Origin: Balanoglossus misakiensis
Lineage: Eukaryota; Animalia; Hemichordata
Length of the DNA stretch: 64,000 nt
NCBI GenBank assembly: GCA_040954595.2
Contig: CM082587.2
Span: 3,862,093 to 3,926,092 of the forward strand
Direction of reading: 5' to 3'
The position numbers and the translations under genes are program-made. Below, piece after piece: positions 53,901 to 56,900 of the stretch (the stretch's first letter is position 1; each line of letters begins with the position of its first letter). The notes below the pieces were generated by a model. It made no database searches, was not told where the DNA came from, and saw nothing but the letters and a program-made list of their open reading frames with translations.

Positions 53901-56900
53901 AAATTCAACATCATATGAAAATCACAACGAGGTTTTGCTTTCTTGGCAGCATATTCATGAAAATCAATGCCCTCGAGACATTCTACCAATGGACACATAA
54001 AAAGGGGGACATTTGAAAGCCGAGTGCCCTACCTGGCCGCGGGGTCGTAGTCTGACCACACTCGTAAATATTCCTCAAGATGATGAGCTCCGAGAATCGA
54101 CGCGTCTCGCGTCAAGTAGTCAAAGTTGTCCATGATGACAGCCACGAACAAGTTAAGCATCTGTGGAGCAGAGCAGTGAATTTCTCCGTCAGCGAATAAT
54201 CTCAGATACTTTTCATGCTGTTTGTATGAAACACTGGCGACTTTAGCCTATCTCTGACTTTTGCCAGTGCAAAAGTGTTCATCATTGTTCACATTTGTTA
54301 AAATTTCAATTTTCTGAGCTAAAAGTTACAGACCACTGCACTGATGACCTTTCGGCCAGTTCAATTTCAGAAAAAAGACGGTACAAGACGCATGCCAATA
54401 CCTCAAAAAATCAAAAAGTGAAAAAAACTTTCACAAATCTCAGTGCAGTAAAACTGTTACTTACAACTGACTGAAAAATCATGCTTGAGTAATCAGACAT
54501 TTTAATGAATCATTAATTAACACCAAACATATGCTCTCACTTTCAGGACAAATTTGAGAAAAAAAATGTGAAGACGAAAATCTCAGTTTTAATTTTCAAT
54601 CACAAAATGTGTTAAGCAATCAATAAATCAACAAAAATGGACACTTTGACAATGTTAATGTATACATACGAGATTAGTCATAAACCGACAGTGAGAGCAA
54701 TCTTGAACAAGTATTCATTCCACATAATAATAATCACTGACAATTCTTTTGGAAATGGGTTGCATATTAAAAAATTGTAGATTCTCATGGCAAATGTTTA
54801 CTAACTAAACACACTCCAGCACACACACACACAGATACACTCAAATAAATAAATTGTGTGTTGGCTCGCTTTTTAGAAATTAGTAAAGAACACTAAAAAG
54901 AGGTCAAAAGTTAATAATGTTAGTCGAAATTGTGCAGAGACAGAACACAGACGTCCAATCGGTCGGACGGGAAAAACCAGACTTACCAGAAATGAGCTCA
55001 TGAAGAAAAAGCTTACGAAGTAAATGTAAGAGATGTTTGACCCACAGTCGCCTTCGCCCATACCACTGAGTGGGTCACAATCCACCCCTGATGCACATGC
55101 TAACATGATCTCTTGCCATGCTTCCCCTGTGCAACACCTATTGAGAACACGGGGGGAACAGGGTGCAGGAGAGAGAATAAAAGGGGAGGAAGAGTAGAGA
55201 AAGAAAGAACCCATGCGTGAATCAGACTGGTCACATGTCAACCTTGTGGCCGTCACATGACTCGCATGTGGTGGGCGTCATCGGTCGATTTTATCATGCG
55301 TGTGTATATATATAATGCTGTGTGACTATTCCGGAAAAAATTTGTGAACGAGTATTTGCAGAATTGCAACGGTGTGTGGATAGAGAGAAAGCTGCCGTTT
55401 AAAAAAATGATTTTTTACTGTTCCATGTGCCTGGAAGAGTGAGATATTGCCTAGAAAAAGTGAAAAGATTTAAAACCATCAGTAGAGGAAAGAAGAGTTA
55501 GCATTAAAAAAGCCATACTTGTATATGAGTGTGTGTTTGTGTGTGTGAGACAGAGAGAGAGGGGTCTTGTAGGACAGGAATGGCCCGCCCGGCCAGTGGC
55601 TGGCTGGCGTGGGCGTGTTTAGCGCTTGCTGCAGCTGACCAATCATCACCTCGGACGTGTATACACGGACGGCACTTACCAAGAAAGCCATGAGAAAGAC
55701 AAAGCTCACAAAATACACATAGCTCAAGCCAGAGCCACAGGAATTCTCAGGGTATCCTGTGGTCGGTGCACAGGGTCGACCAGCTCGGCAATCCTTCATG
55801 ATCTCCTGCCAAGCCTCGCCGGTTGCACATCTGTAATATGTGACGATAATTGTAACAAAAAACACAGGCACGTGTACATGTACACACGACAGAACAAAAC
55901 ACAAGGTACAGCACAGAGTTATTGGCAATGACAGTTAACAAAGGGACAGATTGCGAATAGTAACAAAAGATGTAGGATTTGTAGGATATCTAAATGAATA
56001 TTTAAGAATCATGGTACATGGTACATGGTTTTGAGTTCGTGTCTGCTAGCGTAACTAAAATGCTGACGTGTCTGGCTGATACACTATATACTGAGTGCCG
56101 TACAACAGTGTAAGCTATTTTTTCAGCTTTTTGTGTGTGTATTAACTAGTTTCTTGTTCTACTCCTTTCTACATGATGGCATGTCCAGTATTAAGCTTGT
56201 TAACAGTCTGAATTAAGTACATCAGGTACATACTGGGAATTTCATCATGGATAATATAGTAGGAAAACAAACTAATTGATGCACACAAAAACTCTGAAAC
56301 ACACAGCTTACATGAAAGTTAAAACTACTATCATGACACAATGTTTTCCTGCTTAAAACCGAATCTTAACAGTTCTGTGGAAAAGATGACAAAAATAGAC
56401 ATTTGTGTAATATTTTTCCATCAATTTTGACTGCACACTGTAACACATGTTAAATGGTGAATGAAACATGAGTACATGACTGACTGTAAAATCAATCACA
56501 GTCAGACACAACAATAATGAATGAACTTGGATGAAAAAATTGAATAGATTAGTAGTATAAGGCTTATTTAACCCACCCCACCCACCCATCCCTTCTTCAT
56601 TTACATGGGTCCAACTTGATCACAGTGAAATCAATGAGGGCTGCAGGACCCAAGCACAGGGGTGATGGATCACACTACTGGTTTTGGGTCGTTTAAAGAG
56701 AAGAGGGACTTGTCTCACCTGAACAGAAGTAACAATGCTTGAAGGAAGCCACGGAAATTATTGTGTCTGTTGATCTGTGAGTCATCTGACAGAGCTATTG
56801 CACCAAACATCTGCATGGAAACAAGAATCAAATCACGTAGTCAGTCAGCTATGGTCTTTAATGGAAATCCACAGAAAACAATGTGGATTTGAACCAAACC

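Follow-up and report, generated by a model that had tools for sequence, protein, structure and literature searches.

The 64,000-nucleotide stretch of DNA from the acorn worm Balanoglossus misakiensis that was analysed here (the window) carries part of a Cav2 calcium channel alpha-1 gene in which one exon of the domain IV pore is present in two versions. These lie in tandem on the minus strand and are usable only one at a time, an architecture of which we are close to certain. Exon A (55680..55830) and exon B (54987..55137) are each 151 nucleotides (nt) long and encode the same segment: the end of the first pore helix (IV-P1), the selectivity-filter glutamate, the second pore helix (P2), the P2-S6 loop and the outer half of the last transmembrane segment (IVS6). 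With moderate confidence, we favour the reading that this either/or spliced pair stems from a duplication in early acorn worms and yields two calcium-selective channels, for which we predict modest differences in gating and in sensitivity to blocking drugs or lipids.

Exons A and B are usable only one at a time

Each exon is preceded by AG and followed by GTAAGT, is entered in phase 2 and is left in phase 0. An intron of 542 nt (55138..55679, minus strand) separates the two, and introns of 888 nt (55831..56718, minus strand) upstream and 826 nt (54161..54986, minus strand) downstream connect them to constitutive exons. These coordinates, splice sites and phases reproduce those given in an initial annotation of this DNA, which also proposed that the reading frame is broken when both exons or neither are included. 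We examined this proposal with a model of 20 exons (63767 to 52864) that covers the gene between the II-III linker and the IQ region. When only A or only B is included, the model reads through 785 residues with no stop codon. Inclusion of A and B together produces a stop inside B (at about 55077-55075), and omission of both produces a stop in the next exon (at about 54114-54112). Thus each of the improper products ends prematurely, and the stops fall well upstream of further exon junctions.

The two exons are identical at 29 of 50 residues and at 80 of 151 bases. Each exon matches Pfam Ion_trans 184-220 and, among solved Cav1 and Cav2 chains, aligns only to the pore of domain IV (14 of 14 matches for each), in agreement with the original assignment of the pair to the domain IV pore and S6. 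The filter glutamate (in the motif TGEAW) and the loop cysteines, also noted at the outset, are seen in both translations. Within the window, no other exon of the Cav2 gene has a second copy, and the pair is therefore not a product of chance.

The gene is a Cav2 gene of enteropneusts

Judged by its homologues, the gene is an enteropneust Cav2 alpha-1 gene; the initial annotation had already named it as Cav2. By exon model and homologue comparison it spans 35957..63990 on the minus strand and covers the II-III linker through the last coding exon, with domains I and II located beyond the window end. The best match among the 150 listed for a two-exon profile search was the Cav2 model of Saccoglossus kowalevskii, and a search with that protein brought in Ptychodera flava, Glandiceps talaboti and four echinoderms. 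Ptychodera, Glandiceps and Saccoglossus represent three separate families of Enteropneusta. The window protein is 90% identical to the Cav2 model of Ptychodera, 86% to that of Glandiceps and 83% to that of Saccoglossus, and echinoderm Cav2 models are about 67-70% identical to it. In a tree of the constitutive part, constructed without a Cav1 outgroup, the window protein groups with the acorn-worm Cav2 models (support 97) and adjoins Ptychodera. Furthermore, the constitutive exon downstream of the pair (128 nt, 54033..54160, minus strand), which encodes inner IVS6 and the start of the EF-hand region, carries a post-IVS6 signature that fits Cav2 loci and not Cav1 loci. The filter glutamates of domains III and IV are present in the window, and all four (EEEE) are present in both Glandiceps isoforms and in Saccoglossus.

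The pair predates the split of three acorn-worm families

Orthologues of both exons are found in other acorn worms. The Glandiceps cluster comprises eight RefSeq isoforms, each of which has exactly one version of the exon: six (X1, X3 and X5-X8) are A-type and two (X2 and X4) are B-type. Isoforms X1 (XP_077986577.1) and X2 (XP_077986578.1) differ only in the 50 residues of the exon. The single Ptychodera model is A-type, and the single Saccoglossus model is B-type. Identity is 39-40 of 50 residues within type A, 36-42 of 50 within type B and 25-31 of 50 between types, with the upper figure for type B coming from the window copy and its Saccoglossus counterpart (42 of 50).

In a tree of 18 exon rows, A and B each form one side of a branch (97/96). 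Approximately unbiased (AU) tests reject a clade uniting A and B of the window (p 0.001), a clade uniting A and B of Glandiceps (p 0.0001) and a duplication after the Saccoglossus split (p 0.011), which rules out duplications specific to single species. A single hemichordate clade is not rejected (p 0.47), and the duplication may be either younger or older than the separation from echinoderms. From these rejections it follows that the pair is older than the split of the three acorn-worm families, which occurred about 370 million years ago. Its likely origin, as reconstructed from these comparisons, is a tandem duplication in an early acorn worm.

Divergence between the two copies also speaks to their age. 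The proportion of synonymous differences (pS) between A and B is 0.89, which is saturated, and that of nonsynonymous differences (pN) is 0.34. Among the degenerate codons at identical residues, 20 of 27 differ, and the intron bases flanking A and B match at background level (7 of 50 and 16 of 50). Saturated synonymous sites, a lower pN and flanks at background together indicate an old duplication with both copies under purifying selection, and grouping by type rather than by species, combined with the saturated sites, leads to the same conclusion. As a side observation, the A and B exons of Glandiceps share mid-loop residues that are unlike those of the copies in other species, which hints at past gene conversion.

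Searches for such a pair beyond the acorn worms gave negative results. A metagenome scan yielded 79 loci, 65 of them with both flanking exons. Of these 65, 26 are genomic and have an intron on either side of the exon (5 Cav2 and 21 Cav1), and none of the 26 has a second copy of it. Only one version appears in the isoform sets of Amphiura (15 of 15 listed, of 29), Antedon (15 of 15 listed, of 17), Diadema (2) and Anneissia (1), and likewise in those of Folsomia (14), Oedothorax (7) and Parasteatoda (3). Exon variants in Trichinella are differences between species. For a second exon in Saccoglossus, Ptychodera or pterobranchs, exon A was compared with proteins of 89-2000 residues, which gave two matches, neither from a hemichordate, and a six-exon profile compared with proteins of 27-88 residues gave 12 matches, none closer than 58%.

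Conserved differences lie mostly in IVS6 and at the ends of the pore helices

Six differences between A and B are fixed within type: positions 2 (Ala in A, Cys in B), 13 (Asp, Ala), 27 (Pro, Gly), 44 (Val, Phe), 46 (Leu, Met) and 47 (Met, Ser). They fall at the P1 end, at the P2 end, at one loop position and at three positions in upper IVS6. Seven further positions have disjoint residues in the two types, including 15 (basic in A, hydrophobic in B) and 26 (Tyr in A, aliphatic in B), and position 48 is mostly Ala in A and Ser in B. The filter glutamate, the tryptophan and three loop cysteines are invariant in all six hemichordate exons.

Several of the type-specific residues are rare elsewhere. 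We compared them with 229 distinct non-hemichordate Cav exons picked by pattern, a set that is rich in vertebrates and arthropods, is not made up of independent members and has lost exons that misfit the pattern. Met47 and Met46 occur in none of the 229 and Cys2 in two. Among the 158 Cav2-like exons, Phe44 occurs once and Ala48 never. Rare residues are thus present in each type, which indicates that each copy is part ancestral and part derived. Type-specific conservation is also regional: the S6 portion of window B is identical to both other B exons at 17 of 19 residues, and the loop of window A is identical to other A loops at 13-14 of 17. All three B exons contain an N-x-S sequon no more than about three residues from S6, and its glycosylation is unlikely because of this proximity.

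Alignment to solved chains places the changed residues at sites with known roles. Positions 44, 45 and 48 correspond to Tyr1365, Met1366 and Ala1369 of rabbit Cav1.1, which are named as dihydropyridine and diltiazem contacts in a published account (PMC10761187). Positions 44-48 also correspond to I1804-S1808 of rabbit Cav2.1, where S1808 is described as reagent-accessible and facing the pore (PMC2266581). Cysteine substitutions at 1807 and 1808 are listed with half-activation at 13.6 and 14.8 mV compared with 6.6 mV for the control, a shift of about +7 to +8 mV (PMC2266581, Table IV). More generally, changes in S6 are reported to alter inactivation strongly in some cases, for example at M1811, which lies just outside the exon (PMC6096772).

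The sodium channel Nav1.4 provides a further point of reference. These published positional data support, without demonstrating, a modest effect of the exon choice on gating and pharmacology. We take residue I1575 of Nav1.4 to be the equivalent of exon position 44. That isoleucine is reported to lie at the level of the filter and to shift inactivation by about 8 mV (PMC5766632).

Functional consequences and alternative explanations

On the favoured reading, one Cav2 gene would give rise to two channels, with either A or B filling the domain IV filter, P2, outer loop and outer IVS6. We infer that the functional difference would come from repacking of the P1 end (position 2, Ala or Cys) against upper IVS6 (positions 44, 46, 47 and, for the most part, 48). 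The upper IVS6 positions would line the side window between domains III and IV as well as the cavity roof, and the P2 shoulder would add the differences at 13 (Asp or Ala) and 15 (basic or hydrophobic). Such a switch would resemble exons 8/8a of Cav1.2, in that it would affect gating and pharmacology rather than the choice of ion.

Several points weigh against this reading. The Glandiceps isoforms are automated predictions and not transcripts of this species; the presence of both copies in one genome is known only from the window and from Glandiceps, with one model each for Ptychodera and Saccoglossus. The differences called fixed are few and are not independent, each type being represented by three sequences, and the predicted side-chain orientations rest on alignment to published structures. 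In Cav2.1, cysteine at 1804 or 1806 (positions 44 and 46) is listed with half-activation at 6.9 or 7.4 mV, close to the 6.6 mV of the control (PMC2266581, Table IV). The gating effect may therefore be small, also because gating is similar for Cav1.2 exons 8 and 8a. Finally, the P1 and S6 changes could compensate for one another and be nearly silent.

This last point can be extended to a distinct explanation, in which the exons are still either/or but their repacking is compensatory, and the near-equivalent copies are kept for use in different tissues or stages, or for folding or surface delivery, rather than for any difference in current. The small-to-large swaps do pair up in this manner (Ala2 with Met47 in A, Cys2 with Ser47 in B), and single cysteine changes at matching Cav2.1 positions have small effects. 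However, the rare residues particular to each type are retained from family to family, as seen in the S6 of B and the loop of A, and this is more than interchangeable copies would be expected to do. We regard near-equivalence as improbable.

About as improbable, or slightly more so, is the function that the initial annotation had put forward, in which the swap alters the electrostatics of the outer pore and thereby conductance, proton or divalent-cation block, or sensitivity to peptide toxins. The loop charges on which it was based are real in this species (net +1 for A and -4 for B), but the contrast is not conserved. Net loop charge is -1 for A and 0 for B in Glandiceps, 0 for the A exon of Ptychodera and -1 for the B exon of Saccoglossus; single-exon echinoderm channels range from 0 to -7. 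Net charge was consequently rejected as a conserved signal, since the contrast is absent or reversed in relatives. Nor is it supported as the purpose of the switch: most of the conserved differences are found in IVS6 and where the P1 and P2 helices end.

Other features of the loops would suit an electrostatic or toxin-related role. The A loop is well conserved: Asp13 is fixed, position 15 is basic and positions 26-28 read Tyr-Pro-Glu, where B is glycine-rich. A swap of the same domain IV loop is reported to change sodium and calcium passage in Cav3 (PMC7382465), but both loops of the acorn-worm pair have equal numbers of cysteines, unlike the Cav3 cases. Position 12 aligns with Leu1471 of Cav1.2, which is described as lying on the pore shoulder and being bound by calciseptine, and positions 12 and 17 both match the calciseptine site (PMC10761187). 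However, the lysine at position 12 is private to this species (one of three A exons and none of the 229 others). Ziconotide binding also counts against this function: position 9 aligns with E1659 of Cav2.2, a P2 residue stated to contact this toxin (PMC10761187), and the glutamate is identical in window A and B, with the remaining domain IV contacts falling in the upstream exon.

It is highly unlikely that one form passes sodium to replace the Nav1 channel missing from hemichordates, in the manner of Cav3 exon 12a or NALCN exon 15b. Hemichordates are reported to be without Nav1 (PMC6259924) and to carry the NALCN pair 15a/15b (PMC4436565), and A does have basic residues near the P2 end. Against these stand an EEEE filter that is intact in both isoforms, the absence of a conserved lysine near the filter, and a published permeability of about one sodium per 1000 calcium ions for Cav1 and Cav2 (PMC6259924). 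The P2 lysine of window A, being species-private, was ruled out as a selectivity switch.

Least probable of all is that one copy is a nonfunctional pseudo-exon in this species, or that the pair is an assembly artefact: the window B loop has drifted more than that of A (6 of 17 and 11 of 17 identical to the other B exons), yet exon B is free of stops and indels although synonymous sites are saturated, and it remains close to its Saccoglossus orthologue, both forms are modelled in Glandiceps, and a haplotype duplication is excluded by differences at 71 of 151 bases.

How exclusion may be achieved

All splice sites are of the GT-AG class, with GTAAGT donors at A and B. The zone free of AG is 157 nt long before A and 87 nt before B, compared with 21-69 nt before constitutive exons (n = 17; a rank probability of 1 in 171). 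Long AG-free zones are typical of regulated exons with distant branch points, and the branch point of A is likely to be distant, as predicted from its 3′ splice region. Steric exclusion requires a branch point no more than about 50 nt away from the upstream donor. The AG-free zone of B starts about 450 nt from the donor of A, and steric exclusion is unlikely because the branch region of B is too far away. With this distance and the uniform GT-AG sites, both steric clash and mixed U2/U12 spliceosomes are unlikely mechanisms.

RNA pairing offers little more. In a search for docking and selector duplexes, three of four flanks were within or weaker than the values of 12 shuffles, and the fourth was marginal (-25.4 compared with -24.6 for the best shuffle). 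Inverted repeats or duplexes at the pair amounted to nothing beyond simple CA/TG repeats and shuffles. The intron between A and B is CU-rich, with 20 TCTT/CTCT motifs where 8.7 are expected, and the downstream intron holds three ACTAAY (QKI-type) motifs where 0.4 are expected. These excesses are leads only, because eight motifs were tested in three introns. The most likely route of exclusion, to the extent that these features permit a prediction, is a regulated choice made by splicing regulators acting on the long 3′ splice regions, with nonsense-mediated decay serving as a backstop that would clear double or empty products.

Comparison with known exon pairs

The closest counterparts are exons 8/8a of Cav1.2 and Cav1.3, another tandem duplicated either/or pair, which likewise exchanges a pore-lining S6 segment of a high-voltage calcium channel. 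In Cav1.2 these exons swap IS6, and dihydropyridine sensitivity is reported to change while activation and inactivation are similar (PMC3596553). They are described as PTB-regulated (PMC12149502), and the acorn-worm intron before exon B is CU-rich. Unlike 8/8a, which belong to domain I of Cav1, the present pair belongs to domain IV of Cav2 and includes the filter glutamate, P2 and the outer loop. The IVS6 drug site of Cav1.2 is stated to lie in constitutive exons (PMC3596553).

Exons 37a/37b of vertebrate Cav2.1 and Cav2.2 (PMC5818475) resemble the pair in being tandem duplicated, in having a length that is not a multiple of three and in lying near the end of domain IV of a Cav2 channel. Unlike the acorn-worm exons, however, they encode part of the cytoplasmic EF-hand region, two exons further downstream, and the matching 97-nt EF-hand exon of the window (53799..53895, minus strand) is single. 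The single Cav2 gene of other invertebrates is diversified in similar fashion. Either/or exons are present in Drosophila cacophony (5/6 at IS4 and 10/11 in the I-II linker; PMC12370356), and in Aplysia exons 33a/33b encode IVS1-S2, with exon 38, which corresponds to the acorn-worm exon by order and size, described as single (PMC10657410). Cav2 models of the springtail Folsomia have alternative segments at IS3-S4, IIIS3 and IVS2. None of these pairs is in the domain IV pore, and the initial statement that known mutually exclusive Cav2 exons lie elsewhere is therefore upheld for vertebrates, fly, Aplysia and springtail. By position and size, the 97-nt EF-hand exon is presumably the homologue of vertebrate exon 37.

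Variants of pore modules are also known from invertebrate Cav3 (12a/12b), cnidarian Cav3 (D4L6) and NALCN (15a/15b). D4L6 concerns the same domain IV P-S6 loop, and its variants are reported to be separate genes (PMC7382465). The Cav3 and NALCN variants are described as changing the number of cysteines or a filter residue and as switching sodium/calcium preference (PMC4436565, PMC7382465). Unlike these selectivity switches, the acorn-worm pair leaves the filter glutamate and cysteines unchanged and has no conserved lysine.

In the open full-text literature, with subscription journals outside the scope of the search, we found no printed description of a domain IV pore pair in Cav2, in keeping with the initial annotation; the orthologous pair X1/X2 of Glandiceps already exists as automated RefSeq gene models. 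What is new is thus the site, the domain IV pore of Cav2. The kind of event is known, Cav genes frequently contain mutually exclusive exons, and the effect may be small. The published high-voltage calcium channels compared use a constitutive exon for the domain IV filter and IVS6 drug site, an exon of which acorn worms have kept two versions. The pair offers a natural experiment on the role of P1, P2 and upper IVS6 in linking the filter with gating and with drug binding at the side window, and it gives a handle on the diversity of presynaptic calcium entry in a deuterostome with a single Cav2 gene.

Domain IV variation in other ambulacrarians

The constitutive exon upstream of the pair (92 nt, 56719..56810, minus strand) encodes the IVS5-P1 turret and P1. 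It has one version in the window and in all eight Glandiceps models, and it is alternative in echinoderm Cav2 models: Amphiura has three versions among 15 listed isoforms (12, 1 and 2), and Antedon has two among 15 listed (13 and 2). The turret holds two of the ziconotide contacts in Cav2.2. The Amphiura models also show alternative segments in domain II S5 and in IIIS1. From these comparisons, the domain IV pore of Cav2 looks to have been repeatedly diversified by splicing in ambulacrarians, with the echinoderm case consisting of protein models only.

A broader and more speculative possibility is that ambulacrarians, having a single Cav2 gene and reported to be without Nav1 (PMC6259924), build Cav2 subtypes by swapping halves of domain IV. 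Acorn worms would swap the filter-P2-S6 exon, and brittle stars and feather stars would independently swap the S5-P1 turret exon. The A form, which carries an L-type-like alanine where diltiazem makes contact and, next to it, a methionine not seen elsewhere, would then be a natural Cav2 channel with distinct inactivation and pharmacology that serves a different cell type from B. We offer this proposal tentatively and think it rather less probable than not; if true, splicing in ambulacrarians does what vertebrates did by gene duplication.

Other features of the window

Further variation is apparent elsewhere in the Cav2 gene. Two in-frame microexon candidates (59154-59168, 15 nt, and 58654-58665, 12 nt, minus strand) with AG and GT[AG]AG sites lie in a 3.2-kb IVS3-S4 intron, at what we take to be the position of vertebrate exon 31a. 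An optional five-residue insert is present at IVS3-S4 in seven of eight Glandiceps isoforms, Ptychodera also has a five-residue insert, and of the two candidates the 15-nt one matches best. A large C-terminal exon (40585-42018, minus strand) has about 480 codons and contains a 42-nt repeat (41180-41352). It has a counterpart in the Ptychodera model and none in Glandiceps X1, and by this comparison it is likely to be optional. The C-terminus (35957-35970, minus strand) has an acidic-DWY end that is the same in all three acorn-worm models, and crinoid models end in WT. The canonical C-terminal PDZ ligand of Cav2 is D/E-D/E/H-WC (PMC7456537).

A Flower/CACFD1-like gene (about 22600-24330, minus strand; Pfam Cg6151-P) shares the strand of Cav2 and lies about 12 kb downstream of it. 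Flower is linked to synaptic vesicle recycling. At least two tandem genes for NAD(P)-binding proteins of the flavin reductase/BLVRB-like kind (Pfam NAD_binding_10) lie at about 24840-30040 on the minus strand. Exons at about 15300-18280 (minus strand) read like a putative homoserine/serine O-acyltransferase (MetX-like); neither of two exon frames gave a Pfam match. Such an enzyme is unusual in animals. Finally, an 88-nt satellite array occupies 14 kb (166-14227), with about 160 copies that match at 98-99% and a change of orientation near 2100.

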